55,409 nt of DNA from NCBI GenBank assembly GCA_947624085.1, contig CANQIK010000003.1:1-55409 (forward strand). The letters run 5' to 3'. Below the pieces are notes generated by a model, which saw nothing but the letters and a program-made list of their open reading frames with translations, was not told where the DNA came from and ran no database searches. Positions within the stretch are counted from its first letter, which is position 1. The number at the start of each line of letters is the position of its first letter. Source of the DNA: an uncultured Bacilli bacterium. Lineage in GTDB: Bacteria; Bacillota_I; Bacilli_A; RF39; UBA660. Below are positions 1 through 44,344 of the stretch, one piece after another. A program made the position numbers and the translations under genes.

Positions 1-164
1 TATTTAGCTGCTTCTATCATATGAAGTCCTTCTTCACCTAGGGCTCCTTTTCTTGCTCTTGTTATAAGTGGTCCTATGGCAGTAGTGGCAATTAATACTA
101 TTACCCCTAATATTACGATAACTGCTATTAATTCTATTAAGGTAAATCCTTTCCGATTCTTCAT
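1..164 (-). CDS. Type IV pilin-like protein, 5' fragment (gene continues past the left window edge)
   Basis: Minus-strand translation from the ATG at 164-162 gives MKNRKGFTLIELIAVIVILGVIVLIATTAIGPLITRARKGALGEEGLHMIEAAK. This is a short basic leader, a G|FTLxE prepilin cleavage/methylation motif with Glu at +5, and a hydrophobic helix. The ORF is truncated by the window edge, so it is absent from the ORF track. Confidence 0.8.
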   Translation of the reverse strand, partial: MKNRKGFTLIELIAVIVILGVIVLIATTAIGPLITRARKGALGEEGLHMIEAAK

Positions 165-248: not shown

Positions 249-1691
249 TTATTTTACTTTATATGGATGAGCATCGCTTCCATCAATGTCGTCACCACCA
301 CTTAGTGTTACACTAGATTTAAGATAAAAGACCGGCCTAACGCCATAGCTACGCCACCATGTTTCTCCGTATTCTACGTCCACTTCTCCCCAATACGAAA
401 TGCAAAACGTATTCCATGTGTTAGCGCTAAAGGGCGTAATAGTCCATTCAAATACACTATTAAATAACCAATTATTTTCTATATTTAAACTATTATTATA
501 TGCTGAAATGAATGTTGCCCAATTTTCTTTACTACTTGCAAAGCTATAGTCATGAATATACATTAAACCCACATAAGCTGGAACGCCAGCTTTTGACAAT
601 TCAAGTGGTTTCTCATCATCATATACATTTTTTGGTGTGCCACCAGTTGTAAAATGACCATCAACCCTCCATTTTACTAATTCTATTTTTTGGGCGTCAG
701 AGCCTAAAGTTGAATTTAAATATTTACCATTTAATGACTGATATAATATACTAGTTTCCCAATCATTTTTTGCATTATAATGCCAATAGAACCCGTCGGT
801 TGGGAATTTTTTGACCCTTTTAATCGAATCATATTTTATATACGACGTTCCCATTGATGCAGTTCCTAACTGCTCCGATGTAGCATATTCTGATTTTATT
901 ACTTTAATACGATATTCTATATTTCCATTTGATAATTCTACCGGTACATACCCTATTATACGATATAAGTTTTCATCAGGACATGTTGTTGATGTGCCAT
1001 TATTATAGTTTTCACTACCTTTACCAAAACATATAAAGTTATTTGGGTTATTTCCTGAATAACGACATCCACCGTCGCCTGCATCGTCATATTCTCCGTC
1101 ACCATTGACATCTATTGTTTTATCATGTTTTATAACATCCGGACTTGAACATACATCTAATGACTTTTCTTCGGGTTCAGGTTCAGGTGTAGGCTCAGGC
1201 TCTGGGTCTGGGTCAGGATAAGTATAACTTGGTAACTTCTTACTTAAGCCTTCACAATCTTCAATCGCTTCTTTTCCTTCCGTTGCTAACTCTGAATCAT
1301 AATCCTTTTCATTAACATTATTAAAGACATATGTTCCATTTGATAGCCAAAACTTATAGCTATAGTTTTTAGTCTCTTCATCATATTCTATTAATACGGA
1401 TCCGGTATATCCTTCATCTTTCCCTTTATCATAATAATCATTTTCATTTAGCCATTTTAATGAGTAACATATTGATTTTGATCCTTTTATATTATTTGCT
1501 TCATCTATTTCATCTAACTTATGAGCATATTTAGCTGCTTCTATCATATGAAGCCCTTCTTCACCTAAGGCTCCTTTTCTTGCTCTTGTTATAAGGGGTC
1601 CTATAGAAGTAGCTGCTATTAGTATTACTACCCCTAATATTACGATAACTGCTATTAATTCTACTAACGTAAATCCTTTCCGATTCTTCAT
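249..1691 (-). CDS. Modular type IV pilin-like protein with large C-terminal 'GVRPVFYL' cargo domain
   Basis: 480-aa ORF. The N-terminus MKNRKG|FTLVELIAVIVILGV has a prepilin leader, Glu+5 and a hydrophobic helix, followed by a small pilin-like head. An acidic Pro/Glu linker PDPDPEPEPTPEPEPEE (nt ~1165-1215) follows. The remaining ~300 aa are shared with 16500-18185 and 28710-29990 (motifs CRYSGNNPNNFICFG, NLYRIIGYVPVE, IKSEYAT, ENNWLF..EWTI, GVRPVFYLKSSVTLSGGD...PYKV). SD AGAGGTG lies upstream. Confidence 0.85.
   Translation of the reverse strand: MKNRKGFTLVELIAVIVILGVVILIAATSIGPLITRARKGALGEEGLHMIEAAKYAHKLDEIDEANNIKGSKSICYSLKWLNENDYYDKGKDEGYTGSVLIEYDEETKNYSYKFWLSNGTYVFNNVNEKDYDSELATEGKEAIEDCEGLSKKLPSYTYPDPDPEPEPTPEPEPEEKSLDVCSSPDVIKHDKTIDVNGDGEYDDAGDGGCRYSGNNPNNFICFGKGSENYNNGTSTTCPDENLYRIIGYVPVELSNGNIEYRIKVIKSEYATSEQLGTASMGTSYIKYDSIKRVKKFPTDGFYWHYNAKNDWETSILYQSLNGKYLNSTLGSDAQKIELVKWRVDGHFTTGGTPKNVYDDEKPLELSKAGVPAYVGLMYIHDYSFASSKENWATFISAYNNSLNIENNWLFNSVFEWTITPFSANTWNTFCISYWGEVDVEYGETWWRSYGVRPVFYLKSSVTLSGGDDIDGSDAHPYKVK
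330..437 (-). other. GC-enriched hypervariable patch inside cargo domain (copy in pilin-fused paralogue)
   Basis: The 108 nt lie between the conserved EWTI and RPVFYL codons. My hand count gives 54/108 G+C in a ~30% GC genome. The protein sequence here is unalignable with the other paralogues. Confidence 0.7.
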
Positions 1692-5998: not shown

Positions 5999-7222
5999 CT
6001 AATTGTTTCCTAAAATGTACGGATTATTGACAGAGCCATCACCGCTCACTACTGTTGATGTTTTATTAATCGTAATTACGGGTCTTATGCCTGCAACCGA
6101 GGTTCCATTTGTGCTTGTTAAACTACCATCAGCGCCAAGGGAAAAGGCAAAATATGAGCCATCTCCATCAAGGAAAGCCGATGTCATGGTAAAGGCACTA
6201 GAACTCATGTGGTCGTTATATAGAAAGTAAGCTTCATTAGCTTGACCATAAACTCCACCGGCATAGACTATTTCATCAGCCGTTAATAAAGCGACTTTAC
6301 CACTATAAGTATCGCCTAAACAATAAAACGTTGGAATATTATCTTTGGTAAGTCTTTGATTTGCTAAATACCCATTATCAGTTCTCGTTAAATCATTACA
6401 ATATTTTTGCGTTGCAACAATATCACTATACTCGCCTAAAGATGTTAATAACCAATTATTTAAAGAATTAATAATACTACTATGGGCAATATCAAAGTTA
6501 GTATCATAATAACGATTAAGAAGCTCTAAATTATCATTTAAAACTAGTTTAATTGAGCCATCGCCATTAATACGAACTATTCTAAATAATAAATCATTAA
6601 TTAAAACATAATTATTAGTTACATTACCTCTAAAGTAATAAGTTGTGCCATTATCATCAGTTGCTTCAATTAAGCCCTCATCACTAGTAGCTACATCAAT
6701 ACCTACTTTTGTTAAAGTTGCTTTTTTAATTTCATTATTATTAATGATAACATCGGCAAAACTTGAAGATTCTAAAGTTTCCATATTAACATCAATATCT
6801 AAACTAAATTCATCATCAACTTCAGAGGCAAAACTAATATCAAATGTTTCTACTTCCCCCGCACCAATTAAGATATAACTCGATACAATAGCATTATAAG
6901 GAAGTAACTCACTTTCAATATTTATATCATTGTTATTGGTAATCTTATAAGTTGCTTTAGGCACATTTTGCACATTTTCAAATTCAATATAATAATAAGC
7001 GTCTTCATTAGAATCATTTATGATAGATATTTGGGTTTCTTTATGTCCTTTAACCGTAACATGATTACCCGTACTAAAATTAATTGATAAGTTACCAGAT
7101 ACTTTAATATAAGGCTCTTTGCCTAGAAGATGACCATAGCTAATGTAAAAACCACCAAGCACTACACTGCCGATTAAGAGAAATAATATAATTAAAAGGG
7201 CACTTTTAAATCTTGTTCTCAT
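5999..7222 (-). CDS. Secreted/surface protein: TasA-like N-terminal signal/module plus divergent 'RPV' cargo domain
   Basis: 407 aa. The N-terminus MRTRFKSALLIILFLLIGSVVLGGFYISYGHLLG has the same signal style as the 30562-33618 cluster. The C-terminal half aligns motif by motif with the cargo family: TYYFRGNVTNNYV..LFRIVRINGDG, LLTADEIVYAGG, AFTMTSA, AGIRPVITINKTSTVVSGDGSVNNPYIL. Confidence 0.7.
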   Translation of the reverse strand: MRTRFKSALLIILFLLIGSVVLGGFYISYGHLLGKEPYIKVSGNLSINFSTGNHVTVKGHKETQISIINDSNEDAYYYIEFENVQNVPKATYKITNNNDINIESELLPYNAIVSSYILIGAGEVETFDISFASEVDDEFSLDIDVNMETLESSSFADVIINNNEIKKATLTKVGIDVATSDEGLIEATDDNGTTYYFRGNVTNNYVLINDLLFRIVRINGDGSIKLVLNDNLELLNRYYDTNFDIAHSSIINSLNNWLLTSLGEYSDIVATQKYCNDLTRTDNGYLANQRLTKDNIPTFYCLGDTYSGKVALLTADEIVYAGGVYGQANEAYFLYNDHMSSSAFTMTSAFLDGDGSYFAFSLGADGSLTSTNGTSVAGIRPVITINKTSTVVSGDGSVNNPYILGNN

Positions 7223-10868: not shown

Positions 10869-11783
10869 CTAATTTCGCATATTTTCTATTAATATACCAA
10901 TATTTGATCCTACTTTATCTTTAAGTTCCTCGACGTTTTCACAATAATTTTTTTCGCGTTTTATAGCATCATCAATTTTGTCAACGAACATATCAAAATT
11001 TAAATTAGCTTTATCATATCCTATTATTTCTGAAAGCATTTTATCTGAATATTTTTTAGATCTTTTATTTGAATTAACGCGTTTATTTTCTAATAACTTA
11101 TCAAAATCTAAAGTATCAAACTGTTCAAAATGCATTAATAACCAAGCTTCAAAACAAGGATTACTTACATATAATTTAATATTATTTTTCTTACAACTAC
11201 TCACTAAATTATCATATTGATCTGGTTTAAAGTTACCCTTATCTCGATCAACAATTAAATTAATAACGTCAATTTCTGAATTATAGTCAAGAATAACTCT
11301 TTGAACATCTAAATAATTAATAATTTCAGAGGCTATATTTTCAAAGACATCATCTTTAAATATATCCATGATTATATTATCAATCTCACATAAATCTATT
11401 ATATCATTGGCATAATTTTCAATATAATTTTTTGCCATTTTTATTAATTCTTCTTTATTAAATAAAGCTTCATTTTTTATATAATCAACTAGGCATTTAT
11501 ATAAATTTTCTTTACTAATAACATTTTCGGTGCTCTGAGATTTAATGTCATTTGCCATTTTCAACGCATATTTAGGATGACTTTTAGAGGAGTCATCTAA
11601 ACTTCTTAGAACACTAATTAAAGATAATGATTGATTTATTGCTAATTTTTCTCTGTTAACTATGATACCATTAAAATACATTGGTTCAGTTACTTCGCCT
11701 TCATATATTAAAAAATACTTAGGCATTTCTGTCATTGTTTCATTTGGTCTTTCTGCAAATTTACTATTTGTCTGTACCCTCAT
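10869..11783 (-). CDS. RloB-like (Toprim-type) protein, partner of the upstream ATPase; AbiLii-like defence component
   Basis: 304 aa. RloB hallmarks are present: N-terminal FLIYEGEVTEPMYF, acidic IVDRD, and SNPCFEAWLLMHFE. It overlaps the ATPase gene by 20 nt, so the pair is translationally coupled. The true start could be M17 or M20. Confidence 0.8.
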   Translation of the reverse strand: MRVQTNSKFAERPNETMTEMPKYFLIYEGEVTEPMYFNGIIVNREKLAINQSLSLISVLRSLDDSSKSHPKYALKMANDIKSQSTENVISKENLYKCLVDYIKNEALFNKEELIKMAKNYIENYANDIIDLCEIDNIIMDIFKDDVFENIASEIINYLDVQRVILDYNSEIDVINLIVDRDKGNFKPDQYDNLVSSCKKNNIKLYVSNPCFEAWLLMHFEQFDTLDFDKLLENKRVNSNKRSKKYSDKMLSEIIGYDKANLNFDMFVDKIDDAIKREKNYCENVEELKDKVGSNIGILIENMRN

Positions 11784-13125
11784 TATATACCCCCGGAAAA
11801 TCTATAAAAATAGGAACTGCACCATATCTACCATCTAAATAGGCTTTATCTATCTTACGATCAAATCTAGCATCATCTTTAAATTGTTCCAATGAATATA
11901 ATTTTGTTGAGCCATCCTTTTTCTTTTCGGCAAACCATACTTCATCTCTTCTTAAAACATTATAACTCAATAATCGAGATTCATGAGTTGTAATTATCAA
12001 TTGGATATTTCTATTTTTTAATAGATTTAAAAAACAATTAACAAATCTAACTGTAAGAGATGGATGCAAGCTTCGATCAATCTCATCAATAATGAAAACT
12101 TTATTATCGGATAATAATATATCAATTAATTCTAAAATTCGAAGTGTTCCGTCAGATTCTTCATAAGTATCAAAATAAGTATTAGAATTAGTATGTAATA
12201 TTTTTATAACTTTTACATTAAGATTTTCATCTTTATTATTGCCACTTATTGTATATATACAATTTTCAATTCTTAAAGTTATATCAAATTTTGACACATT
12301 ATTGCTTATTTGATTAATATCAGATGTAAGTCTACTATATTCCGCTGGGGAAAGTCTATCTTTAATTTCTGACATATTAGATTCGCATTCTAATAAATCA
12401 TCGATATCAAGACCTAACATTTTTAATAAAGGTTTAATATCATTTTTAAATTGTGAAAAATAATTAAATTTAATTTCTCGATTTTGATTAGGCAATACTA
12501 ATTGCAAATCGTTTAGAAAAAAGTCAAAAACATTCTCAAAGTCAATAAAAGAAGAAGTTTTAACATCATTCATTTGGATTCTTCTTGTCATTTCAGTAAG
12601 AAAAAAGATATTATTATTATTTAATATATCACTTTTACAAACTTCAAAGCGGTTGGCATCGACTTTATCTTTTATTTTTAAATCCGTTTTAATCGTTTTT
12701 TTAATAGCATCTCTTTCAAATATAATAAACTGATTGTTTTTAGTCATATCAATAAGCCACTCAGAAACGATTTCTTTCTTATTGATATTTACTTCAAACC
12801 CATATGAATATAATTTATTATTTTTGGCAATTTCATATTCAAAATAAGAAGGTATTTCTTTATTTTTTTCATTTAGCCTAAAATATTGATTGGCAAACAA
12901 GCCTTGAATGTTATTAAGTAAAAGCTTTTTTCCTAAATCTATAGCTAAAACTAAATTAGATTTACCAGAGGCATTAGCACCATATATAGAACTAAATTTT
13001 AATATTTTTAAATTATTAATATTAGCGATATGTTCTGGAAAGTTTCGCGTTTTGCCCGCGACCATAGAAAAATGTTGCATATCATTAAATGACCTAAAAT
13101 TTTTAACTTTAAAGCCAATTAGCAT
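11764..13125 (-). CDS. AAA_21/ABC-type ATPase (AbiLi / OLD-, PARIS AriA-like defence ATPase)
   Basis: 453 aa. It has the N-terminal IGFKVKNFRSF, Walker A GANASGKSN, signature-like ESDGTLR, Walker B VFIIDEIDRSLHP, H-loop ITTHES, and a C-terminal YLDGRYGAVP. Confidence 0.85.
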   Translation of the reverse strand: MLIGFKVKNFRSFNDMQHFSMVAGKTRNFPEHIANINNLKILKFSSIYGANASGKSNLVLAIDLGKKLLLNNIQGLFANQYFRLNEKNKEIPSYFEYEIAKNNKLYSYGFEVNINKKEIVSEWLIDMTKNNQFIIFERDAIKKTIKTDLKIKDKVDANRFEVCKSDILNNNNIFFLTEMTRRIQMNDVKTSSFIDFENVFDFFLNDLQLVLPNQNREIKFNYFSQFKNDIKPLLKMLGLDIDDLLECESNMSEIKDRLSPAEYSRLTSDINQISNNVSKFDITLRIENCIYTISGNNKDENLNVKVIKILHTNSNTYFDTYEESDGTLRILELIDILLSDNKVFIIDEIDRSLHPSLTVRFVNCFLNLLKNRNIQLIITTHESRLLSYNVLRRDEVWFAEKKKDGSTKLYSLEQFKDDARFDRKIDKAYLDGRYGAVPIFIDFPGVYNEGTDK

Positions 13126-16499: not shown

Positions 16500-18185
16500 T
16501 CAGCTTACTTTAAATGGCTTGGATTGACTACCGTCAATACCGTCGCCACCACTTAAGGTTACACTAGAGTTTAGATAAAAGACCGGGCGCACACCATACG
16601 CGTCGTCAACGAAGTCGCCGCCGTCCACGTACCCACTGTAGCCGACATTGAACGCATAGTTAGTGCTGACTGAAACGCGCGAAATAGTCCATTCGTATAC
16701 ACCATTAAATAACCAATTATTTTCCCTGTTTTGGTTATTTTCAATTTCATCATCTTTACTATCATCATACATATAAAGCCTATATTCCCAGCTTTTTGGT
16801 TCACTTGCAAAGCCATAATCTGATGGATACATTAATCCTATTTCAGCTTGCACTTTTGTTTGTGCTCCTCCTGACTCATTCCATTCCTCATCATATACTT
16901 CTTTGGCTTTTGGTAATTCATCATTAGGATTTCCTCCAACATTCCATTGTACCTTTTCTATTTTACTTTCCCAGGTAGTACCCAATTTATTAAGAAAGCT
17001 TTTGTCATTGCTATTTAATGCTTTATATAATGAACTACTTCCCCATACATTAGCATTGTCGCTATCACAATCATCGTTCCAATGGAAACCATCAACACTA
17101 TCTTCTGCCTTTACCCTTTTTAAGCTTTTATAGTCATCCTCAAAATATTCAGTTCCATCTGCACTATCTTTGCCTAAATCATCATGAGTTGCATACTCTG
17201 ATTTTATTATTTTAAATAAATTTTGGGTTGTTGTACTATCATCTTCATTAACAACTTCGACTGGAACTATACCTATTATACGATACAAGTTACCATCATT
17301 GCAGGTATCAGATTTTCCATTATTATAGTTTTCACTGCCCGGGCCAAAACAAATAAAATTATTTGGATTACAGCCAGAATAACGATAGCCGTTATCTTCT
17401 GCGCCATTTTGTAATGTTTTATCATGCTTTAGTAATCCACCTATGCCCATAGGGCACAAATTAGATTTAGTTGTTGATATAGCCGTGTCATTCACAAGCT
17501 TTTCAGCGAACTCCTCAGCAGTTAACTTTTCGGAAAGGTTAGTTAGACCCCCCCCCGGTTTACACTTACTTGTCTTAAAATATATTTTGCCACTGAAAGT
17601 TTTGTTTAAATTTCCGTTTTGGTCTACATTTTCTAATTTATAGTGGCGGTATTTGAACGTCCAATTTTGTGTTGTAGCACTTGCGCCTTTTGTAGCAGTA
17701 ATGGAAGCATCCATTATTTTTTTGTCTGTGGATGTTTTCATGTTTTGTAAATCTAAAGATTGTTCACCTTTAGGATACAAACTGCCATTTGCAGAAGCAA
17801 CTATAGTGAGTTCATTAGCATGCGTTATGCCAAAATCACTGTCAGCATGGAACCACACTTCATAGTCACAAGTAACGCTATCATAATCTGAGTTGTTTTT
17901 TAAACTAACAGTACCTGCGCTAGAATTACTTTCAATATAATTATTTTCAGTTTCATTTGTTAATTGTAAAGGGTCAATATAAAATGTAAGGTTATTATCA
18001 GCATTTAAATTAAATGCTACATTAAGACCATTATTAAAGTTTATGTTTTCATTTATACCATTTAAAGTATTAGAAAAATAAGCAAAAGATACACTCATAA
18101 CGACAATAGCAACGAGTACTATACTTGAGGCTATCATAACAACAACTTTTTTACTATTCACTGACTTTTCTTCCGTTCTTTCCAT
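16500..18185 (-). CDS. Surface protein: TasA/camelysin-like signal and module fused through a poly-Gly (G9 tract) junction to the 'GVRPVFYL' cargo domain
   Basis: 561 aa with a strong SD AAGGAGGAAG. The N-terminus ...IVVMSVSFAYFSNTLNG resembles SipW-type signals (camelysin GGGTFAYFSD). Residues 1-209 align with the stand-alone 211-aa protein at 31925-32560 (TCDYEVWFH/TCNYKIYYQ, TQNWTFKYRHYKLENVDQ/SQTWSLHYRFYNLDVDQ, SGKIYFKTSKC/SGKIIIEGQNC). Residues ~214-561 are the cargo domain (GYRYSGCNPNNFICFGPGSENYNNG, NLYRIIGIVPVE, IKSEYAT, GLMYPSDYGFAS, ENNWLF..EWTI, GVRPVFYLNSSVTLSGGDG..KPFKV). Confidence 0.85.
   Translation of the reverse strand: MERTEEKSVNSKKVVVMIASSIVLVAIVVMSVSFAYFSNTLNGINENINFNNGLNVAFNLNADNNLTFYIDPLQLTNETENNYIESNSSAGTVSLKNNSDYDSVTCDYEVWFHADSDFGITHANELTIVASANGSLYPKGEQSLDLQNMKTSTDKKIMDASITATKGASATTQNWTFKYRHYKLENVDQNGNLNKTFSGKIYFKTSKCKPGGGLTNLSEKLTAEEFAEKLVNDTAISTTKSNLCPMGIGGLLKHDKTLQNGAEDNGYRYSGCNPNNFICFGPGSENYNNGKSDTCNDGNLYRIIGIVPVEVVNEDDSTTTQNLFKIIKSEYATHDDLGKDSADGTEYFEDDYKSLKRVKAEDSVDGFHWNDDCDSDNANVWGSSSLYKALNSNDKSFLNKLGTTWESKIEKVQWNVGGNPNDELPKAKEVYDEEWNESGGAQTKVQAEIGLMYPSDYGFASEPKSWEYRLYMYDDSKDDEIENNQNRENNWLFNGVYEWTISRVSVSTNYAFNVGYSGYVDGGDFVDDAYGVRPVFYLNSSVTLSGGDGIDGSQSKPFKVS
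16581..16682 (-). other. GC-rich, adenine-poor hypervariable patch inside cargo domain
   Basis: These are the 34 codons between EWTI and PVFYL: TCG CGC GTT TCA GTC AGC ACT AAC TAT GCG TTC AAT GTC GGC TAC AGT GGG TAC GTG GAC GGC GGC GAC TTC GTT GAC GAC GCG TAT GGT GTG CGC CCG GTC. My hand count gives 61/102 G+C and 16/102 A on the sense strand. Confidence 0.8.
17548..17556 (-). repeat. Homopolymeric G9 (C9 on plus strand) tract in coding sequence
   Basis: The plus strand reads agaCCCCCCCCCgg. The sense strand reads AAA CCG GGG GGG GGT CTA ACT AAC (KPGGGLTN). This is the longest G/C run I saw in the window; the others are 5 nt or shorter. Confidence 0.95.
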
Positions 18186-25823: not shown

Positions 25824-27128
25824 CTAATCATCATTTTTATTTTTAAATTGTAATATTATTGGTGTGCCCTCTAAATCAAAACTTTTGCGGATTTCATTTT
25901 CCAAATACCTCTCATAAGAAAAGTGAACAAGTCTTTTATTATTGACTTCCAGCGTTATTTTCGGAGGCATATATCCTGTTTGATGAACATAATATATTTT
26001 TAATCTTTTACCTTTATAAGATGGTGGCATATGAACACCTACCGCTTCCATAACAACATCATTTAAAAGTGAAGTTGGAAGCATTTGAATAGTATTATCA
26101 TAAGCTTTAATTATGGCGTCCATAAGGTCTTTTAATCTTTTATGGGTTTTAGCAGAAACATATACAACTTTAGCAAAACGAGCAAATTGAAAATTATTGG
26201 CCATTTTGATATTCCACTCTTTTATTGCTTCATTAGGATTAGCAATGGTATCCCATTTATTAACGGCAATAACAACTGCTTTTCCCGATTCTAAAGCATA
26301 AGATAAAATATGTTTATCATGTTCAATAATTCCCTCTTCGGCGTCAACTACTAAAACGCAAACATCGCTACGGTCAATAGCTTTTAAACTGCGCAGAAAG
26401 CTATATTTCTCAACGTTTTCATATATCCGGCCTTTTTTACGCATACCAGCCGTATCTATTAACGTATATTCTTCACCATTATATTTAAATTTTGTATCTA
26501 TAGCGTCTAAAGTGGTTCCTGATACATCAGAGACAATTAAACGATCTTCATTAAGAAAAGCATTAATTAAACTACTTTTACCAACATTAGGTCTACCTAA
26601 AAAGCAAAATTTTAAAGACTTATCATCAGTTACTTCTTCTAAAGGTAAACTTTCATAAATCATATCAAGAAGTTTAGTAACGCCTAAGCCATGCTCGGCA
26701 GATAAAGCGACCACATTTTCAAAACCCAATTCATAAAAGTTATAAATATTTTCCATCCTTTTATCATTATCTAGTTTATTAACAACGACAATAACTTTCT
26801 TACTTGCTTTATGAAGCATACTTTGAATCATTTTATCTTCATTATCAAGTTCCCTAAGGCCATCTGTTACAAATAAAATAATATCAGCTTCATCTATAGC
26901 TAAAGTAGCTTGCATTAATATATCTTTAACAAATGTTCCATTTTCAAGCGTTATTCCTCCGGTATCAATTAATCTAAAAGCTTTATCTTTATACGTAACT
27001 GTTCCATATATTCTATCTCTAGTTATACCTGGAGTATCCATAATAATAGCTTTTTTCTCTTTAATAAGACGATTAAAAATGGTACTTTTTCCTACATTAG
27101 GTTTACCAATTAAACATACTGTTTGCAT
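25824..27128 (-). CDS. der: Ribosome biogenesis GTPase Der (EngA)
   Basis: Tandem GTPase domains (GKPNVGKST, GRPNVGKSS, DTGG/DTAG, NKLD/NKWD) plus a KH-like C-terminus. Confidence 0.95.
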   Translation of the reverse strand: MQTVCLIGKPNVGKSTIFNRLIKEKKAIIMDTPGITRDRIYGTVTYKDKAFRLIDTGGITLENGTFVKDILMQATLAIDEADIILFVTDGLRELDNEDKMIQSMLHKASKKVIVVVNKLDNDKRMENIYNFYELGFENVVALSAEHGLGVTKLLDMIYESLPLEEVTDDKSLKFCFLGRPNVGKSSLINAFLNEDRLIVSDVSGTTLDAIDTKFKYNGEEYTLIDTAGMRKKGRIYENVEKYSFLRSLKAIDRSDVCVLVVDAEEGIIEHDKHILSYALESGKAVVIAVNKWDTIANPNEAIKEWNIKMANNFQFARFAKVVYVSAKTHKRLKDLMDAIIKAYDNTIQMLPTSLLNDVVMEAVGVHMPPSYKGKRLKIYYVHQTGYMPPKITLEVNNKRLVHFSYERYLENEIRKSFDLEGTPIILQFKNKNDD

Positions 27129-27140
27129 ATATCCCCCTAT

Positions 27141-27707
27141 CTACTTACAATAAGTGTTTGTTTCACTATATTCACTATTAGTCCAAGTACGTGAACTACT
27201 GTTATAACTACTAGCAGGATCAATTAATTTCCTATTTGCTATTCCATCAGCAGTATTATCCATTATAATACACGCATATACCCGATTATATTCCATATAT
27301 ATTCTTATTTTTAAATTGTTTACTATAACATCATCAACCGGATTGGTCATTACGGCACAGCGCACAATCCCATCGGAATAATTGCTTTTTTGTTTAACAC
27401 ATTTAATAGAGCCCAAAGTACTTTTATTTTCATATTCGCTTGTTTCTAAGTCATTTGACTCGATTAAATCTCCTACCGTTTTAGTTATTTTTTTAGTAGC
27501 AACGCCACTGGCATTTAAAAATAATTCTTTATTATTTCCGCCATATTCTTGAGCAGCGGCAATCATTAAATCAAGTTTAGTTTCAAACATATTTTTATTA
27601 ATTTTATTTTTAATCGCCGCAATACTTGAAGAACCAATAAGGATAATAACTGTCAAGATAACTAAAACTGCTAAAAGCTCTACTAAAGTAAATCCCTTTT
27701 TATTCAT
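27141..27707 (-). CDS. Type IV pilin / pseudopilin-like protein (orphan)
   Basis: 188 aa. MNKKG|FTLVELLAVLVILTVIILIG has a prepilin leader, Glu+5 and a hydrophobic helix. Two Cys pairs (IKCVKQ...VRCAV and YACII...NTYCK) include a C-terminal disulfide-loop-like arrangement typical of pilins. Confidence 0.8.
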   Translation of the reverse strand: MNKKGFTLVELLAVLVILTVIILIGSSSIAAIKNKINKNMFETKLDLMIAAAQEYGGNNKELFLNASGVATKKITKTVGDLIESNDLETSEYENKSTLGSIKCVKQKSNYSDGIVRCAVMTNPVDDVIVNNLKIRIYMEYNRVYACIIMDNTADGIANRKLIDPASSYNSSSRTWTNSEYSETNTYCK

Positions 27708-27715
27708 TTATCCTC

Positions 27716-28309
27716 CTATAAGTATGAATTAATAATATCTAAAATTTCTGTTCTACCCTTTTTGGTAATAATAGAAAAAGGGATAAAAGCATTATCTTCG
27801 CTTAAACCTAAAGTTTCATTAATAAGTTTATCTTGTTTAAAACGATTGTTTTTAGTAATTTTATCATATTTCGTAGCTACAATTGTTATATCTAAATTAT
27901 AATACTTTAAAAAGTCATACATTAATACATCATCTTCGGTTGGTTTATGGCGATAATCTATAAGCATAAATACTCTTTTAAGATTTTGTCTTGTTTTAAG
28001 ATATTCTTCAATCATTAAGCCAAACTTCTTTTGTTTTTCTTTGTTAACGGCAGCATAGCCATAACCAGGAACATCAACTAAATAAAAACTTTTATTAACT
28101 AGATAAAAATTTAATGTTTGTGTTTTTCCAGGTTTAGAAGAAGCTCGAGCAAAATTCTTTCTTTCAATTAAAGAATTAATAAAGCTACTTTTACCAACAT
28201 TAGATCTTCCCACGAGTAAAAATTCAGCACGATTATCCTCCGGATATTGGCTAACTCTTACCGCAATAGTTGGTTCATCTACTGATAATATATCCATGTG
28301 TACCACCAC
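27716..28309 (-). CDS. engB: Ribosome biogenesis GTP-binding protein EngB/YsxC
   Basis: 197 aa with GRSNVGKSS, DVPGYG and TKYDK. Confidence 0.9.
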   Translation of the reverse strand: MVVHMDILSVDEPTIAVRVSQYPEDNRAEFLLVGRSNVGKSSFINSLIERKNFARASSKPGKTQTLNFYLVNKSFYLVDVPGYGYAAVNKEKQKKFGLMIEEYLKTRQNLKRVFMLIDYRHKPTEDDVLMYDFLKYYNLDITIVATKYDKITKNNRFKQDKLINETLGLSEDNAFIPFSIITKKGRTEILDIINSYL

Positions 28310-28709: not shown

Positions 28710-29990
28710 TTAATTAACTTTGTAAGGTTTTGCGTAACTACCATCGCCACCACTTAAGATTACACTAGAGTTTAGATAGAATACAGGACGAACACCATGC
28801 ACGGTGCCAACGTGGCCGCTATTCAGATACCCAGTGTCGCCGACAAAGAACGCATTGATAGTGCCACCGCGCAAAATAGTCCATTCATAAATGGCATTAA
28901 ATAACCAATTATTTTCGCGGTTTTGGTTATTTTCTTCTTGTTCATTATCTTTAACATCATTATATTTATAAAGTCTATATTCCCAACTTTTTGGCTCACT
29001 AGCAAAGCCGTAGTCTGAGGGATACATTAGCCCTATTTTTGCTGGCACTTTTGTTTTTGCGCCATATGTGCTGCTCCATTCCTCATTATATGACTCTTTG
29101 GCTTTTGGAAGTTGATTTTTAGTACTTCCTCCAACATTCCACTGAACAGTTTCTATCTTATTTGCCCAGTTATTTAGATTATACAAATAACCTGATGAAC
29201 TGCCATTTAAAGTACTAAATAATGAACTACTACCCCATGTATTGTTATAGTCTTTATAGTCTTTGTTCCAATAGAAAGTCTCAACTCTTGTTTCAGCTTT
29301 AACTCTTTTTAAATCTTTATATGTAGAATTAAATGACTGCGTACCATCAGCTGTACTTTTTCCTAAATCACTTGCCGTTGCATATTCTGATTTTATCACT
29401 TTAATTAATTTTGTTTTTGTTCCATTTGATAATTCTACTGGGACATACCCTATTATGCGATATAAATTTCCATCAGGACACGCTCCTCCATTATTATAGG
29501 TTTCACTATTAGGTCCAAAACATATATAATTATTTGGATCATCTCCTGAATATCTATATCCCTGGTCATTAGCGCCATTTTCTAATAAGGAATTATGATA
29601 AATTAGTTCTCCTTCTCCACTTGGTCCTAATAATTTTTCAAAGAATTTTTCTTGTTCTGACTTAATATCAAAATATAATGTACAATTAGTGTTTTCATCG
29701 GCTTTTAATAAAACACTATTACTACTTGGGTTCCAATCGATTATATCTTCGGGAATTGTAGTACCATTACAGCTACTTTTTGCTACATTTAATACATAAT
29801 TACCGCTAGACCATACAGTTGAACTCCCTTGTGTATAACCACTGCCATTTTGATACATATAAGCTATACCACTATCATCTATTGTAAAATTTAATGGTTC
29901 ATTTTCCTTTTTATTTGTTAATAATATTGTGGAAATTACTACTATAACTATTACCAATAATACACTTATTATTCCTACTTTCTTTTTCAT
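28710..29990 (-). CDS. TM-anchored surface protein carrying the 'GVRPVFYL' cargo domain
   Basis: 426 aa with an N-terminal uncleaved-type anchor MKKKVGIISVLLVIVIVVISTILL and a ~110-aa unique region. The cargo domain is highly similar to 16500-18185 at both protein and DNA level (GYRYSGDDPNNYICFGPNSETYNNG, NLYRIIGYVPVE, IKSEYAT, GLMYPSDYGFASEPKSWEYRLY, ENNWLF..EWTI, GVRPVFYLNSSVILSGGDG..KPYKVN). Confidence 0.85.
   Translation of the reverse strand: MKKKVGIISVLLVIVIVVISTILLTNKKENEPLNFTIDDSGIAYMYQNGSGYTQGSSTVWSSGNYVLNVAKSSCNGTTIPEDIIDWNPSSNSVLLKADENTNCTLYFDIKSEQEKFFEKLLGPSGEGELIYHNSLLENGANDQGYRYSGDDPNNYICFGPNSETYNNGGACPDGNLYRIIGYVPVELSNGTKTKLIKVIKSEYATASDLGKSTADGTQSFNSTYKDLKRVKAETRVETFYWNKDYKDYNNTWGSSSLFSTLNGSSSGYLYNLNNWANKIETVQWNVGGSTKNQLPKAKESYNEEWSSTYGAKTKVPAKIGLMYPSDYGFASEPKSWEYRLYKYNDVKDNEQEENNQNRENNWLFNAIYEWTILRGGTINAFFVGDTGYLNSGHVGTVHGVRPVFYLNSSVILSGGDGSYAKPYKVN
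28782..28874 (-). other. GC-rich, adenine-poor hypervariable patch inside cargo domain
   Basis: These are the 31 codons between EWTI and FYL: TTG CGC GGT GGC ACT ATC AAT GCG TTC TTT GTC GGC GAC ACT GGG TAT CTG AAT AGC GGC CAC GTT GGC ACC GTG CAT GGT GTT CGT CCT GTA. My hand count gives 52/93 G+C and 14/93 A. Confidence 0.8.
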
Positions 29991-30561: not shown

Positions 30562-31188
30562 CTAACTATAAAGAACTACTGTTGCGCTAAAAGTTTTATC
30601 CATTGATTCAGTACTTGCATCTTTACTAACCCATACATATAAATCATAATTTTTAGTTGCTTTATTTGTTATACTAGCAGTACCAATATTGTACACAGTA
30701 GTTGCTGACTTTTGATATTTTTTATTTAGATAATTTTGAATATCAGTTGATAATGATTTTGAATTACTACTAAGTGTTTTAACATTATTTTTATTTAACG
30801 TTTGACTTGTTGTAGTCTCTACTAAAAGGAATCTTAATTTATCTATAGGGAAACTACTAGAATTTAACGGAACTATACCAATACTAAGTGATTTAGTCTC
30901 AGTACAATCATTTTTGACACTAAATGAATATTTAAAATTTGATTGAGTATTACTACTACTATTAAAGAACTGGTCATCGGTAATGGGCACAGCATAATCA
31001 TGTGGCAAAGTAAATGCTTTTGAATCACTAATTGTTAAGCCTACACAGCTTGGGATTGATGTTGTCGTTTGCATTTCAACTGTTTTACTGGCACTAATTG
31101 TATAATAAGCATAAGAAGAGGATATAAATGCACACATAATTATAAGTGTTAAAGAAAGAATAAGAATTATCAAATTCTTTTGTTTCAT
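30562..31188 (-). CDS. Secreted ~205-aa protein, TasA/camelysin-like N-terminal signal (cluster member 4)
   Basis: 208 aa. N-terminus MKQKNLIILILSLTLIIMCAFISSSYAYYTISASK. It is a close paralogue of 31275-31892 (shared VEMQ/NATTS.PSC.GL.I, YAVPITDDQF.NS, FKYSF.VKNDCT..KSL.IG.VP.NS, YDLY.W, K.F..TVVLY). Confidence 0.75.
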   Translation of the reverse strand: MKQKNLIILILSLTLIIMCAFISSSYAYYTISASKTVEMQTTTSIPSCVGLTISDSKAFTLPHDYAVPITDDQFFNSSSNTQSNFKYSFSVKNDCTETKSLSIGIVPLNSSSFPIDKLRFLLVETTTSQTLNKNNVKTLSSNSKSLSTDIQNYLNKKYQKSATTVYNIGTASITNKATKNYDLYVWVSKDASTESMDKTFSATVVLYS

Positions 31189-31226
31189 AAATTACCTTCT
31201 TTCATATCTTTTATTACTTTAAGTGT

Positions 31227-31235
31227 AGTATAACA
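31227..31235 (-). promoter_or_regulatory. Extended -10 element (TGTTATACT) directly after a terminator
   Basis: It is part of a 21-nt string CACTTTTTTTATGTTATACTA that is repeated identically at 32584-32604. Confidence 0.4.
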
Positions 31236-31236
31236 T

Positions 31237-31257
31237 AAAAAAAGTGGCAATGCCACT
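31237..31257 (-). terminator. Rho-independent terminator after 31275-31892
   Basis: The minus RNA reads AGUGGC-AUU-GCCACU followed by UUUUUUU. Confidence 0.6.
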
Positions 31258-31274
31258 ATTTCATAAAATATTTT

Positions 31275-31892
31275 TTAGTTATAAAGGACCACAGTATATT
31301 TAAATTCTTTATTCATAGTACTATCAGTAGCAGTAGAGTCAAGCCACATATATAAATCGTAGGTTTTAGAACTGCTAGCAGAAATTGTGGCAGTACCAAC
31401 GTTATATGTTGTTGTAGCAGTAATGCTGTATGTCTTTTTCAAATAATCTTGCAAATCCTTATTCAAAGTCACGCTAGAAGGAAGGTTTTTTACGTTTTCT
31501 TTTTTAAGACTAGAATTACTCTCCACTAATATATATTTTATTTTAGATATAAGTGAAGTATCACTATTTGTTGGAACTACTCCAATTTTTAATGATTTTT
31601 GCGTAGTGCAATCATTTTTAACAGTAAAAGAATATTTAAATTTATTTTGTGTTGTAGTGTTACTATTTAAAAATTGGTCATCGGTAATGGGCACAGCATA
31701 ATCTTTTTCTAAAGTAAAGGTTTTATTACTTGTTATATGTAGTCCTATACAACTTGGTGTACTAGTTGTTGCATTCATTTCAACCGTTTTATTTGTATTT
31801 ATTACATAATAACCATATGAAGCAGAAATACACATAGATGCAACTAGTAAAACAGAAATTATTGTAAGTGCAATTGTTCTCTTTTTATTCAT
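31275..31892 (-). CDS. Secreted ~205-aa protein, TasA/camelysin-like N-terminal signal (cluster member 3)
   Basis: I chose the start at MNKKRTIAL (SD AGGGGA 8 nt upstream). N-terminus ...LLVASMCISASYGYYVINTNK. It is a paralogue of 30562-31188 and lies 26 nt after the previous gene, so it is probably co-transcribed. Confidence 0.75.
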   Translation of the reverse strand: MNKKRTIALTIISVLLVASMCISASYGYYVINTNKTVEMNATTSTPSCIGLHITSNKTFTLEKDYAVPITDDQFLNSNTTTQNKFKYSFTVKNDCTTQKSLKIGVVPTNSDTSLISKIKYILVESNSSLKKENVKNLPSSVTLNKDLQDYLKKTYSITATTTYNVGTATISASSSKTYDLYMWLDSTATDSTMNKEFKYTVVLYN

Positions 31893-31924
31893 AAACATTT
31901 CCCCTTGTTTAAAGTATATTAGTT

Positions 31925-32560
31925 TTAACGGGCATAGCAGTTTTGACCTTCAATTATAATTTTACCCGAAGGATTTTTCCCTATAACATCTGATTGATCA
32001 ACATCTAAGTTATAAAAACGATAATGCAAACTCCAAGTTTGGGAAGCAGTACCAGTAGTTTGATTAGTCGTTATATTTCCCGAATAAAGCTCTTTTTTAC
32101 TAGATACATTAGCAATTGATGTAGTTGTAAAATTGGTGCTTGTGTTACTTATTTCTCCACTTATGCCTAATTCAGTTTTGCCAGAGCTAGCACTTGAAGC
32201 CGTATATTGGGTTGTTGGTTGATAATAAATCTTATAGTTGCAAGTTACGGCTTTTTTATATTGGCTTGGGTTAACTGTAACATTGATCGTTACATTATGA
32301 GTTTCGTCAATATATTTTGACATATTATTATTAGCCGTAGACACAGTTAAATTATCAAGTGTGACATTTAAACTAAAATTAGTATTTCCTGTTATATTAA
32401 ATATATTTTGAGGATTTAAGACATTACCATTTAAAACGTCTGTGTTACTAATATTAGCTTTATATCCAATGTAACCATATGAAAATATGGCTGCTAAACC
32501 TACTAAAAAGACAACTGTTAGTGATAAACTATAAATTAAATTCTTATTTTTCTTATCCAT
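31925..32560 (-). CDS. Secreted 211-aa protein homologous to the N-terminal module of 16500-18185 (cluster member 2)
   Basis: N-terminus ...VVFLVGLAAIFSYGYIGYKANISN. It aligns along its whole length with residues 1-209 of the 561-aa protein and ends (...SGKIIIEGQNCYAR*) where that protein has its G9 tract. Confidence 0.75.
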   Translation of the reverse strand: MDKKNKNLIYSLSLTVVFLVGLAAIFSYGYIGYKANISNTDVLNGNVLNPQNIFNITGNTNFSLNVTLDNLTVSTANNNMSKYIDETHNVTINVTVNPSQYKKAVTCNYKIYYQPTTQYTASSASSGKTELGISGEISNTSTNFTTTSIANVSSKKELYSGNITTNQTTGTASQTWSLHYRFYNLDVDQSDVIGKNPSGKIIIEGQNCYAR

Positions 32561-32583
32561 TTCAACTTTCCTATTCTAAAATT

Positions 32584-32592
32584 AGTATAACA
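32584..32592 (-). promoter_or_regulatory. Extended -10 element (TGTTATACT) after the 32635-33618 gene
   Basis: The same 21-nt string CACTTTTTTTATGTTATACTA occurs at 31227-31247. Confidence 0.4.
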
Positions 32593-32595
32593 TAA

Positions 32596-32620
32596 AAAAA
32601 GTGACTTTACACCACTTTTT
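32596..32620 (-). terminator. Weak AT-rich terminator-like hairpin after 32635-33618
   Basis: The minus RNA reads AAAAAGUG-9 nt-CACUUUUU followed by further U residues. Only 3 G:C pairs. Confidence 0.3.
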
Positions 32621-32634
32621 ATACTACTTTACTT

Positions 32635-33618
32635 TTATTTAGCTTCAATATTTTTAGCAGCGATGGTAATGCTTCCCTTAAAGCTTTTTTCAGTATTAAC
32701 ATTTTGATTATGGTTTAAATTAACCATTCTAATGCCCGCGATATAATAATTAGTGCTATTCTTATCTTTAGTAGTAGCAATTGTTCCATTATCTAAAACC
32801 GTTACTTTATCTTTAGGAGCTTTCTCAGTAATATCTACTCTTTTTATTAAATTATAGCATTTATTATTCTCATAAATATTAGCTACCCACATACCATTTG
32901 ACGTACAACTACTTTCACTTTTGATACTACTATCAATAGTGCCATCATACTTTACACAAACTCCTTTAGACGAAGTTCCTGCTCCTCCTATACATTCATC
33001 TTCGGTAAGAGCGTCATTTTTAGCATATAAATCAAGCACTAATTCAGGAACTTGTTCTTTAACCCATACTGTATTAGCTTGCGTCATACAAGAAATTTCA
33101 CTATTATCTAAACCATTTAAATTAGCAAGCTCAGAATTTTCTAAATCATAACAAGCATAAGTCTCATCTTCATAACTTATTCCCCAAGCTTTATTACTTC
33201 CTACACAGCTAGCAAATGTATTATAAGTATTTTCTTTTTGAGCATTATTTTTTAAATAACATTTTCCAGAGGTATACTCAAAATTATTTTCTTCAACATT
33301 TAAGGATATTTCATATTCATGCGTAACTTTTTCTTTACCCGTAGTAAGGCTAACACTAATTTCCGTGCTATCAAATGGATCAGTCATGTTAACTCCAAAA
33401 TTATCTTGAGTAACATTTAAAGTTAAATTATCGCCACTATCAAATTGAAAAAGATCACCGGCATCGCCAACATGACCATTAATATTAGCACTAGCTTCAT
33501 TTTCAACAACACTACCTAAATAAGCAAAAGTCGCTCCCACGACAACTATAACCATAGTAGCTATAGCAATAACAATTAACAAAATAACATTATTATCTTT
33601 TTCATTTTTGGTATCCAT
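32635..33618 (-). CDS. Secreted 327-aa protein, TasA/camelysin-like signal/module with Cys-rich insertion (cluster member 1)
   Basis: N-terminus ...MVIVVVGATFAYLGSVVENEASANINGH; compare camelysin GGGTFAYFSD. The C-terminal strand NQNVNTEKSFKGSITIAAK resembles the family ending. A central ~150 aa carry 10 Cys in C-x(n)-C pairs. SD GGAGGA. Confidence 0.75.
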   Translation of the reverse strand: MDTKNEKDNNVILLIVIAIATMVIVVVGATFAYLGSVVENEASANINGHVGDAGDLFQFDSGDNLTLNVTQDNFGVNMTDPFDSTEISVSLTTGKEKVTHEYEISLNVEENNFEYTSGKCYLKNNAQKENTYNTFASCVGSNKAWGISYEDETYACYDLENSELANLNGLDNSEISCMTQANTVWVKEQVPELVLDLYAKNDALTEDECIGGAGTSSKGVCVKYDGTIDSSIKSESSCTSNGMWVANIYENNKCYNLIKRVDITEKAPKDKVTVLDNGTIATTKDKNSTNYYIAGIRMVNLNHNQNVNTEKSFKGSITIAAKNIEAK

Positions 33619-33747: not shown

Positions 33748-34077
33748 ATGAAACTTATCATAGATAAAAAAAGTTATGAGATAATTAATGCTAATACTTT
33801 TGGGAAAAAATTAATTGGTTTAATGGGCAAAAATAATATTACCTATGGTATGTTTTTCAAAAATATAAGTAGTATTCATACCTTCTTTATGAAAGAAAAT
33901 ATTGATGTCGTGGTTTTAAATAACGATAATATTATTATGGCAATTAAAGAAAGTATGCCGAGAAACAAAATATACATAGCTAAAAAAGGTAAACAAAAAA
34001 CTAGCATATTAGAACTTCCTAATCATGCTAGTCATAATTTACATATTAATGACAAATTAACCTTTATAGGTAAATAA
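33748..34077 (+). CDS. DUF192-family protein
   Basis: 109 aa. ..KLIGLMGK....GMFF.N.SSIHTFFMKENIDVVVLN fits the DUF192 (COG1430) pattern. It converges on obg with a 21-nt overlap. Confidence 0.6.
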   Translation: MKLIIDKKSYEIINANTFGKKLIGLMGKNNITYGMFFKNISSIHTFFMKENIDVVVLNNDNIIMAIKESMPRNKIYIAKKGKQKTSILELPNHASHNLHINDKLTFIGK

Positions 34078-43726: not shown

Positions 43727-44344
43727 TTAAGATTTTTTGACATAAACAAATTCACAAACACCTGGTCCCTTAAATGATGCTTGACCGTTTTCATTTATAG
43801 TTGGTCTTTCTGTAGTAGTGTTTAAACTTAAACAGTCAGATAATTCCGGGCTAAACGTATAACCAGTAGTGATAGAAGTAGACGTTTTAGCTTGAAATGT
43901 TTTGCCATTATCATTGCTAATGTAAACTTTAGAAGATAAATCATCTGTAGATGTTATTTTATCAAAATAGGCTGAGCAGCTACCTATTTGTCCATAAGAT
44001 AATGTAAGAACACTGTTATCAACAGCTGCAAAATAGCTACCATTATCACAGCTACTTTTTTCAGGGTTAAATATATATCCAGTAGGGACGGCTTGATTTT
44101 TAGATTCAGCATAACTATTTACAGGAGTACTGCCTTGTAATTCTTGTAAATAAATTCTTACGCGAATATCGGAAGTTTCAATATTGGCAGTACCGGTAAT
44201 AACTAAATTAGTATTTGTAGTTGTGTAAAAAGCATATGAGAAATATGCAACAGCAGAAAGTAATAGCACAACTAAAAGAACCATACCAAGTGTGATATAA
44301 CTTTTTTTGTTAGGCACTACCTTATTACGAAACCATTCCTTCAT
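43727..44344 (-). CDS. Secreted ~205-aa protein with TasA/camelysin-like N-terminal signal (solitary copy)
   Basis: 205 aa. N-terminus ...VVLLLSAVAYFSYAFYTTTNTNLVITGTANIE has the same signal style and size as the 30562-32560 proteins. It has its own TATAAT promoter and is flanked by terminators. Confidence 0.7.
   Translation of the reverse strand: MKEWFRNKVVPNKKSYITLGMVLLVVLLLSAVAYFSYAFYTTTNTNLVITGTANIETSDIRVRIYLQELQGSTPVNSYAESKNQAVPTGYIFNPEKSSCDNGSYFAAVDNSVLTLSYGQIGSCSAYFDKITSTDDLSSKVYISNDNGKTFQAKTSTSITTGYTFSPELSDCLSLNTTTERPTINENGQASFKGPGVCEFVYVKKS

Follow-up and report, generated by a model that had tools for sequence, protein, structure and literature searches.

A DUF6273-related domain carried by a predicted modular type IV pilin and by non-pilin membrane proteins in an uncultured gut Bacilli bacterium

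Several genes on a 55,409-bp contig from an uncultured Bacilli bacterium (here called the window; 27 to 34% G+C, with genes almost all on the minus strand) encode proteins that end in the same domain of about 300 amino acids (aa) and begin with unrelated membrane-associated modules. We found that this domain is a distant relative of DUF6273, and that one of the proteins, here called A, together with its truncated neighbor A', has the makeup of a modular type IV pilin. The explanation that we favor, and consider moderately probable as a whole, is that these are surface proteins in two parts, in which the carrier would decide how the protein is presented and the cargo would recognize a ligand, with the cargo borne on a pilin in A and A'. 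An initial annotation of the window had described the domain as mounted on a pilin, on a TasA-like module, and on a simple transmembrane (TM) anchor, an interpretation that was supported in part. The four open reading frames (ORFs) that it named (A to D) are present on the minus strand at the coordinates claimed, and they and their parts are as follows.

Gene A, 249..1691, minus strand: 480 aa, predicted modular type IV pilin with DUF6273-like cargo
Gene A, pilin module including the prepilin signal: residues 1-157, nucleotides (nt) 1221-1691
Gene A, PE-rich linker: residues 158-177, nt 1161-1220
Gene A, cargo domain: residues 186-480, nt 252-1136
Gene A', 1..164, minus strand: first 54 codons (5' end) of another pilin-domain fusion in tandem with A, the rest cut off by the contig end
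Gene B, 16500..18185, minus strand: 561 aa, carrier module plus cargo domain
Gene B, TM helix with SFAYF plus a jelly-roll module of ~190 aa: residues 1-216, nt 17538-18185
Gene B, cargo domain: residues 251-561, nt 16503-17435
Gene C, 28710..29990, minus strand: 426 aa
Gene C, TM helix plus a two-Cys module of ~80 aa: residues 1-128, nt 29607-29990
Gene C, cargo domain: residues 129-426, nt 28713-29606
Gene D, 5999..7222, minus strand: 407 aa, TM helix plus an unrelated module of ~160 aa, then a divergent, shorter domain
Gene D, divergent domain: residues 194-405, nt 6008-6643

One C-terminal domain beneath unrelated N-terminal parts

BLASTP aligned B with C at 59% identity over 342 aa (E = 2e-116), A with B at 47% identity over 325 aa (E = 2e-71), and A with C at 45% identity over 327 aa (E = 3e-60). 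The likeness was limited to the C-terminal ~300 aa in all three proteins, and the N-terminal parts showed no significant mutual similarity. The common C-terminal domain that had been proposed for A, B, and C therefore survives alignment, as does the idea that unrelated N-terminal carriers lie under it, and every motif listed for the domain was found in all three proteins.

Gene D, put forward as a divergent copy, was significant by BLAST in its last ~45 aa only (E = 1e-5). When residues 194 to 405 of D were aligned with a profile of 59 family members, they matched over 204 columns (hhalign probability 89.5%, E = 1.9e-6), and because of this profile alignment we regard D as a genuine, shortened, and divergent member of the family. 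B-type carriers elsewhere likewise bear the D variant of the domain ("TSYYFRG...") as their cargo. A six-frame search of the window recovered only the A, B, and C copies and the tail of D; the contig start adds a fifth copy, A', that the initial annotation had not counted.

Gene A encodes a predicted modular pilin, with a tandem partner

Protein A starts with MKNRKG|FTLVELIAVIVILGVVILIAA, which provides a basic leader, a glycine at -1, a phenylalanine at +1, a glutamate at +5, and a hydrophobic helix of ~20 aa. It scored 33.4 bits against PF07963 (cut-off 21.2) and 27.9 bits against TIGR02532 (cut-off 16.3), and these two matches, together with the linker at residues 158 to 177, confirm that A is, as described earlier, a genuine prepilin that has a PE-rich linker. 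Residues 1 to 160 have 50 stand-alone homologues of 115 to 234 aa, nearly all with PF07963, the best of which shares 59% identity across 93% of the query, and a Cys pair near the pilin module's end is conserved among the homologues of A. The stand-alone pilins sit in a conserved ylbD/ylbE-pilin-nfo-pbp neighborhood, without assembly genes. A is made up of an ordinary pilin, a 20-aa PE-rich linker, and a 295-aa domain common to the non-pilin proteins B and C, and as judged from its sequence it fits the definition of a modular type IV pilin (signal, globular module, and linker-joined extra module).

Directly downstream of A on the minus strand, a second prepilin start at position 164 opens gene A', whose translation begins MKNRKGFTLIELIAV.... 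Bases 1 to 168 of the window are 92% identical to bases 1528 to 1695, with 42 upstream bases likewise repeated, and across the 5' end and upstream region the DNA of A' is 86 to 92% identical to that of A. The A' fragment matches P0007, a 472-aa fusion, at 52 of 54 residues. P0007 is encoded on a 3.2-kb contig of a related strain (L129), where both fusions are complete and in tandem, the other one being orthologous to A (500 aa, with a PE-rich linker). Because this related contig carries the complete version, we take A' to be a full pilin-domain fusion. The pilin modules of the L129 pair are identical over approximately the first 157 residues, whereas the cargo domains differ, and A itself is 95% identical to P0007 in residues 1 to 150 but only 57% identical in the cargo. 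Thus, cargo has been exchanged on identical carriers in A and A'. A search of species-representative genomes with the globular pilin part of A plus its linker found no relatives of the A-type fusion, which therefore appears to be young and local, restricted to close relatives.

Prepilins and a second pilin fusion elsewhere in the lineage

The window also encodes a stand-alone prepilin downstream of C, which scored above the cut-offs of PF07963 and TIGR02532 and matched ComGD weakly.

Stand-alone prepilin, 27141..27707, minus strand: 188 aa, between engB and der

The engB-pilin-der triplet (window positions 25824-28309) is kept in six distant relatives (L015, L016, L018, L020, L052, and L069), usually with one or two domain genes upstream of it. 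At a further locus (L078, 4181-8120), two adjacent proteins of ~653 aa with prepilin N-termini (MNNKGFTLAELIGV...), which look like large modular pilins, are encoded just downstream of a domain gene.

Three domain genes found in other genomes start "MKKKNGFISI...", which is pilin-like but lacks Glu5. At two loci, L028 (11836-13854) and L062 (10799-12896), the Glu5-less gene lies between prepilin genes with the starts G|FTFIE and KG|SSLLE, the genes overlapping or abutting. An N-terminus scan brought in 42 species-level loci (L087 to L128), and a cluster of prepilin, Glu5-less pilin, and prepilin was conserved in ~40 species. The domain is found on the middle gene in 20 of 40 cases; in about 6 that gene is bare (~121 aa), and the others have a different cargo of 243 to 736 aa. 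The middle gene matched no curated family, while the flanking genes gave weak ComGD/GE/GF matches, one of which reached the TIGR02532 cut-off. The three-pilin cluster is absent from the window, and it represents an older, independent, second pilin fusion of the domain.

In some minor-pilin tip complexes, the member that lacks Glu5 carries an extra domain, as GspK does. The arrangement in ~20 species, with a domain-bearing Glu5-less gene flanked by Glu5 prepilins, resembles GspK of type II secretion and the ComGG-type tip minor pilins in this respect. It differs from them in that the middle gene has no curated family and the flanking genes match ComGD/GE/GF only weakly; in addition, the cluster is not part of the window.

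The cargo is a distant relative of DUF6273

Residues 375 to 539 of B aligned with positions 27 to 171 of the 172 positions of the DUF6273 profile (PF19789) at 17.4 bits (E = 0.0043), below the Pfam gathering threshold of 23.5 bits; in the same hidden Markov model (HMM) scan, A, C, and D gave no match at E ≤ 1. The PF19789 model spans just the C-terminal ~165 aa of the ~300-aa unit. Searching 5.8 billion proteins with the C domain returned 1,471 matches at E ≤ 1e-3, nearly all covering ~99% of the 309-aa query. PF19789 is present as a precomputed assignment on many of the top 120 of these homologues, and our own scan detected it in 9 of 59 diverse members at E ≤ 0.01 (best, 4.9e-6).

A structure model of the C domain (predicted local distance difference test [pLDDT], 91.9; predicted template-modeling score [pTM], 0.92) was compared with known structures by using Foldseek. 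The only significant solved match was PDB 9qa6 (E = 4.5e-6, probability 1.0, 331 aligned columns), and the part matched is the N-terminal domain (residues 31 to 322) of the Thomasclavelia ramosa immunoglobulin A (IgA) protease ThomasA, a domain that is annotated as DUF6273 (PMC12402451). In BFVD there were 19 matches at E ≤ 1e-3, mostly named "DUF6273 domain-containing" and many of them gut-phage proteins, and one 163-aa target had a TM-score of 0.69 when normalized by target length. Published work places DUF6273 in the C-type lectin fold. Matches to other proteins of interest were short and local: 38 columns aligned with Lcl (DUF1566; 8q4e; E = 0.26) and ~30 columns with C-type lectin domains (E = 2 to 6). 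DUF1566 phage proteins matched at E = 0.15 to 0.9. Of the resemblances to DUF6273, DUF1566, and C-type lectins that the initial annotation had named, the one to DUF6273 is thus upheld at the level of family and fold by PF19789 on the homologues, by 9qa6, and by the phage DUF6273 proteins; those to DUF1566 and C-type lectins are suggested by short and weak local matches.

Among phage protein families, PHROGs gave a weak match to the unannotated phrog_9958 (E = 9e-5). We found no publication on this ~300-aa family, and among the seven papers found to mention DUF6273, none deals with pilins.

The carriers of B and C belong to families of their own

B begins with a basic stretch and a hydrophobic helix of ~20 aa that ends in SFAYF, followed by a module of ~190 aa. 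This N-terminal module is related to the products of four tandem genes elsewhere in the window, which are listed here with a further stand-alone protein that bears on the carrier of C.

30562-31188, 31275-31898, 31925-32560, and 32635-33618, minus strand: four tandem stand-alone genes, cargo-free paralogues of the B carrier
43727..44344, minus strand: 205-aa stand-alone protein comprising a TM helix, a YAFY motif, and a two-Cys module as in the N-terminus of C

The B module matched the product of 31925-32560 (g31925) with a BLASTP E value of 6e-11 over 205 aa and that of 32635-33618 (g32635) with an E value of 1e-3, and its profile matched the product of 30562-31188 (g30562; hhalign probability 91%, E = 1e-6). 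Each of the four tandem genes encodes a TM helix and a beta module as well as the motif [ST][YF][AG]Y[FYL], and none matched a Pfam or NCBIfam family.

A single-sequence homology search with the B module gave no matches, but an exhaustive profile search later succeeded, recovering 1,220 representative proteins at E ≤ 1e-3 (482 at E ≤ 1e-30). The module always lies at residues ~24 to 215, in proteins of 209 to 969 aa. Among the best 150 of the 1,220 carriers, 97 have DUF6273-like cargo and 6 are bare; others carry surface or adhesion modules, namely, Flg_new (the Listeria-Bacteroides repeat), DUF285, fn3, dockerin, and BspA-type leucine-rich repeats. The B carrier is therefore a large family without a Pfam entry and a candidate new surface-display family. 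Of the carrier proteins P0171 to P0318, one matched an intein-splicing domain and another matched flagellin_N.

The initial annotation had called the B module TasA-like, with a SipW-type signal. If that were so, a second, non-pilin fiber could be built from B and from the paralogues at 30562-33618 that have no cargo, cut by a SipW-type peptidase after ATYA|YF and polymerized by donor-strand exchange, with B as the adhesin-bearing subunit, so that the same cargo would be displayed on two filament systems. We consider such a fiber unlikely. Several features do point toward it. The motif at the helix end is strongly conserved, being ATYAYF in 48 and ATFAYF in 15 of 150 representatives, and its P2' residue is aromatic, which is the hallmark that makes TasA a substrate of SipW (PMC10269814). 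TIGR04088, the family for the SipW-dependent-type signal, was the most frequent NCBIfam match among homologues, even though it was found weakly in just 4 of 37 (best E = 0.0037), and 1 of 59 relatives matched the TasA/camelysin family Peptidase_M73 (E = 0.0012). The model of the B module (pLDDT 73) shows a TM helix followed by a beta-sandwich, a jelly-roll fold of the kind that TasA has, and the coexistence of bare tandem subunits with cargo-bearing forms parallels that of pilins with modular pilins.

Against these points, neither B nor its small paralogues in the window matched TIGR04088 or Peptidase_M73, and the latter was found in 0 of 53 further carrier proteins. An hhalign comparison of the B-module profile with TasA, for which an approximate TasA sequence was used, gave a probability of 2%, in the signal region only. 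TasA was not among the top 50 of 1,490 structural matches in the PDB, the matches being generic jelly rolls (capsid jelly rolls and CBM61) with TM-scores of only ~0.25. Neither the window nor the surroundings of the cluster yielded a sipW- or tapA-like gene, and a signal peptidase I Ser-box motif was not found in the window or the other loci by a pattern that may be too strict. Furthermore, a plain membrane-anchored stalk fits the data equally well. The B carrier and TasA/camelysin thus have in common a hydrophobic helix with a small-x-small/aromatic motif at its end, a jelly-roll beta-sandwich (predicted for B), and tandem small paralogues, but they share neither significant sequence or profile similarity nor a sipW/tapA context, and TasA is not among the top 50 structural matches. 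A SipW-type signal in B is suggested by the motif and by weak matches in homologues, B itself having no TIGR04088 match, and "TasA-like" is an analogy rather than a finding. The corresponding conclusion, of an undescribed gut-Bacilli filament parallel to type IV pili, with bare forms at 30562-33618, cargo-bearing forms including B, and a dedicated SipW-like peptidase, is an improbable one. Were it true, a reduced-genome gut bacterium would run two filament systems, each with bare and cargo-bearing subunits and both using one interchangeable DUF6273-like adhesin cassette.

The third carrier had been described as a simple TM anchor, which proved wrong. The N-terminal part of C consists of a TM helix and a conserved two-Cys module of ~80 aa, and a profile of C-type N-terminal modules matched residues 53 to 137 of the 205-aa protein encoded at 43727-44344 (hhalign probability 96.3%, E = 1.8e-9).

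Distribution and chromosomal setting of the domain genes

The domain is encoded at no fewer than 569 loci in the species-representative genomes of GTDB (one genome per species). Eighty loci were retained from this search, and the 100 domain genes in them formed our survey of carriers. All 80 come from uncultured gut metagenome-assembled genomes (MAGs), in places with several loci per MAG, and the family appears to be confined to uncultured gut Bacilli; the MAGs are labeled Bacilli, "Tenericutes," Firmicutes CAG:460, "Ca. Onthocola," and "Ca. Pelethosoma," among others, and derive from rabbit, chicken, mouse, and human samples. Two non-pilin arrangements, with ~45 and ~35 of the 100 genes (the C type accounting for the ~35), are the norm in the lineage, and not one of the 100 genes has a Glu5 prepilin start.

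In the window and across genomes, domain genes adjoin lon, recD2, mscL, obg, lspA, and engB-der. Because they keep the same housekeeping neighbors as in the window, we regard them as stable chromosomal genes and not as parts of mobile elements or prophages. A prophage origin was considered and is ruled out by the export signals of the proteins and by the conserved housekeeping synteny. A diversity-generating retroelement (DGR) was also considered and rejected: the window contains neither a reverse transcriptase-like ORF nor a template repeat, and its only repeats join paralogous coding regions.

Four or more kinds of N-terminal module serve as carriers of the cargo domain. Every one of these carriers is also found cargo-free in the same genome or lineage, implying repeated grafting of the cargo onto surface proteins that already existed. 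The initial annotation had considered the organization unusual. The non-pilin forms being the lineage norm and the pilin-mounted form being conserved in ~20 species, that view is overstated for the lineage, and the grafting of modules onto pilins, with the modules common to non-pilin carriers, has already been published as a principle (PMC8179133).

Weighing ligand binding and filament assembly

The fold of the domain, its architectures and homologies, its distribution in the lineage, and the swapping of cargo are observations on which the carrier-and-cargo explanation is built. According to this explanation, the cargo would comprise an N-terminal beta subdomain of ~125 aa and a DUF6273-type core with a C-type-lectin-like fold, and it would bind a glycan or protein ligand on host, food, or other microbial surfaces, as suggested by the lectin-type fold, by the phage receptor-binding relatives, and by the adhesion-type cargos that take its place on the same carriers. 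In A and A', a prepilin peptidase would cut at KG|FTLVE, the subunits would enter a type IV (probably Com-like) filament, and the PE-rich linker would space the cargo away from the filament. B, as a Sec-exported or membrane-anchored jelly-roll carrier, and C, with its TM helix and small two-Cys module, would present the same cargo nearer the cell.

A number of results weigh against parts of this explanation. With respect to the identity of the domain, all of the window proteins miss the Pfam threshold for DUF6273 (17.4 versus 23.5 bits in the case of B), and the TM-scores to structural matches were modest (0.3 to 0.44), values that are consistent with the DUF6273 core making up only about half of the domain. 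A family HMM matched no PDB sequence even at an E value of 10, and as a consequence the link to DUF6273 rests on homologues and on the fold. With respect to function, the solved relative, the ThomasA domain, has no assigned function, and no family member is known to bind a ligand. The domain also has many invariant polar residues (His, Asp, Arg, Lys, Glu, and two Cys), which could equally mean an enzyme. With respect to the filament, no prepilin peptidase, assembly ATPase, or platform gene was found in the 55-kb window, and Walker A and Walker B motif pairs of the GspE/PilB type were absent from the window together with 84 loci (1.23 Mb) and from 42 more loci (~1.7 Mb of related loci in all), although these loci are small parts of each genome, which makes the scan uninformative for whole genomes.

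The lack of assembly genes, in the window and beside every pilin locus examined, would be accounted for if A and A' were not filament subunits at all, the prepilin N-terminus having no role beyond anchoring them in the membrane or directing their export, in the manner of a pseudopilin-like orphan, and leaving the cargo at the membrane as in C. The pilin genes of the lineage are, moreover, scattered among housekeeping genes. Such scattering is nevertheless common in bacteria with functional type IV filaments, and the lineage has several further pilin genes besides its conserved minor-pilin cluster of three genes. Furthermore, the globular pilin module and its Cys pair have been kept at 95 to 100% identity between paralogues whose cargo has diverged, which argues for selection on assembly competence. 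We therefore doubt that A and A' are orphan anchors and prefer to see them as pilus subunits. Our literature search found nothing relevant on pili in RF39-type Bacilli.

An enzymatic role for the cargo, such as hydrolysis or FGE-like modification of substrates at the surface or outside the cell, strikes us as very unlikely. In its favor are the polar residues invariant across 59 diverse members (H17, D27, R31, R63, K82, E189, E254, R286, and the C42/C56 pair) and the fact that the closest solved relative sits in a protease. That domain, however, leaves the catalytic efficiency of the protease unaffected (PMC12402451). The cargo domain matched no enzyme family in Pfam, NCBIfam, or the PDB, it is related to receptor-binding proteins of phages and to domains with a lectin fold, and the alternative cargos with which it co-occurs are adhesion modules.

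Relation to known systems

That pilins can be modular, and that their modules can be common to different carriers, is an established principle. The survey of modular pilins by Raynaud et al. covered more than 1,200 proteins with 264 architectures, including modules also present on the non-pilin carrier PilC/PilY1 (PMC8179133). Examples of modular pilins are PilB (vWA module) and PilC (ConA-like lectin module) of Streptococcus sanguinis. Like these pilins, the predicted protein A has an N-terminal pilin module linked to a bulky non-pilin effector module; it differs in its DUF6273-like cargo, its long PE-rich linker, and its tandem paralogues with identical carriers and swapped cargo. DUF6273, PF19789, DUF1566, and C-type lectin did not occur in the part of the survey supplement that was searched (PMC8179133).

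The DUF6273 domain of ThomasA (9qa6) is, like the cargo, ~290 aa long and part of a surface protein of gut Bacillota. It forms the N-terminus of a sortase-anchored metalloprotease, whereas the cargo is C-terminal on a pilin or TM carrier, and no sequence similarity between the cargo family and ThomasA was detectable by HMMER. With the phage DUF6273 receptor-binding proteins, including the DGR "tentaclins," the cargo has in common the C-terminal core fold, the gut ecosystem, and a likely recognition function. In contrast to those proteins, the window genes are chromosomal core genes in conserved synteny and encode export signals, the window has no reverse transcriptase or template repeat, and the phage DUF6273 targets (163 to 324 aa) lack the extra N-terminal subdomain of ~125 aa found here.

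The domain already has a Pfam entry and one solved relative. What appears to be undescribed is the two-part domain of ~300 aa, its massive expansion in uncultured gut Bacilli, its occurrence on two independent kinds of pilin, the swapping of cargo in tandem, and the carrier family. The statement in the initial annotation that no description of this organization was known stands for the family, for which we found none, but not for the modular-pilin principle, which had been published (PMC8179133).

The Bacilli in question (labeled "uncultured Bacilli," "Tenericutes," CAG:460, or "Ca. Onthocola") are common, uncultured, reduced-genome inhabitants of the gut whose surface biology is essentially unknown, and the domain family appears to be a main multi-copy surface repertoire of theirs. 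The same work suggests a likely role for a domain of unknown function that also occurs in an IgA protease from a commensal of the human gut and in receptor-binding proteins of gut phages. The tandem pilin fusions, with identical carriers and cargo that is 57% identical, provide a clean natural example of pilin cargo swapping, and the minor-pilin cluster, with a middle gene whose cargo differs by species, provides a further one. Current ideas are not overturned by these results; instead, the modular-pilin principle is extended to a new cargo and a new lineage.

Other genes in the window

Two overlapping genes match the components of the AbiL abortive-infection defense system, and three more genes are of note for their products or position.

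11764-13125, minus strand: match to AbiLi (E = 1e-77), overlapping 10869-11783
10869-11783, minus strand: match to AbiLii, RloB-like (E = 4e-18; Pfam RloB, E = 2e-26)
33748-34077, plus strand: DUF192 (COG1430) gene (E = 1.7e-8)
52775-54865, plus strand: 696-aa TM-anchored protein with many Cys-rich repeats, "CP(S/T)GY..G..C(Y/F)," and no Pfam family
54992-55342, minus strand: 116-aa ORF with weak Ig-like and SprB-repeat matches

The DUF192 gene lies between the tandem carrier-module genes and obg and is the sole plus-strand gene in that stretch. The 116-aa ORF adjoins the gene for the 696-aa protein, and the products of these two genes are probably further surface proteins.

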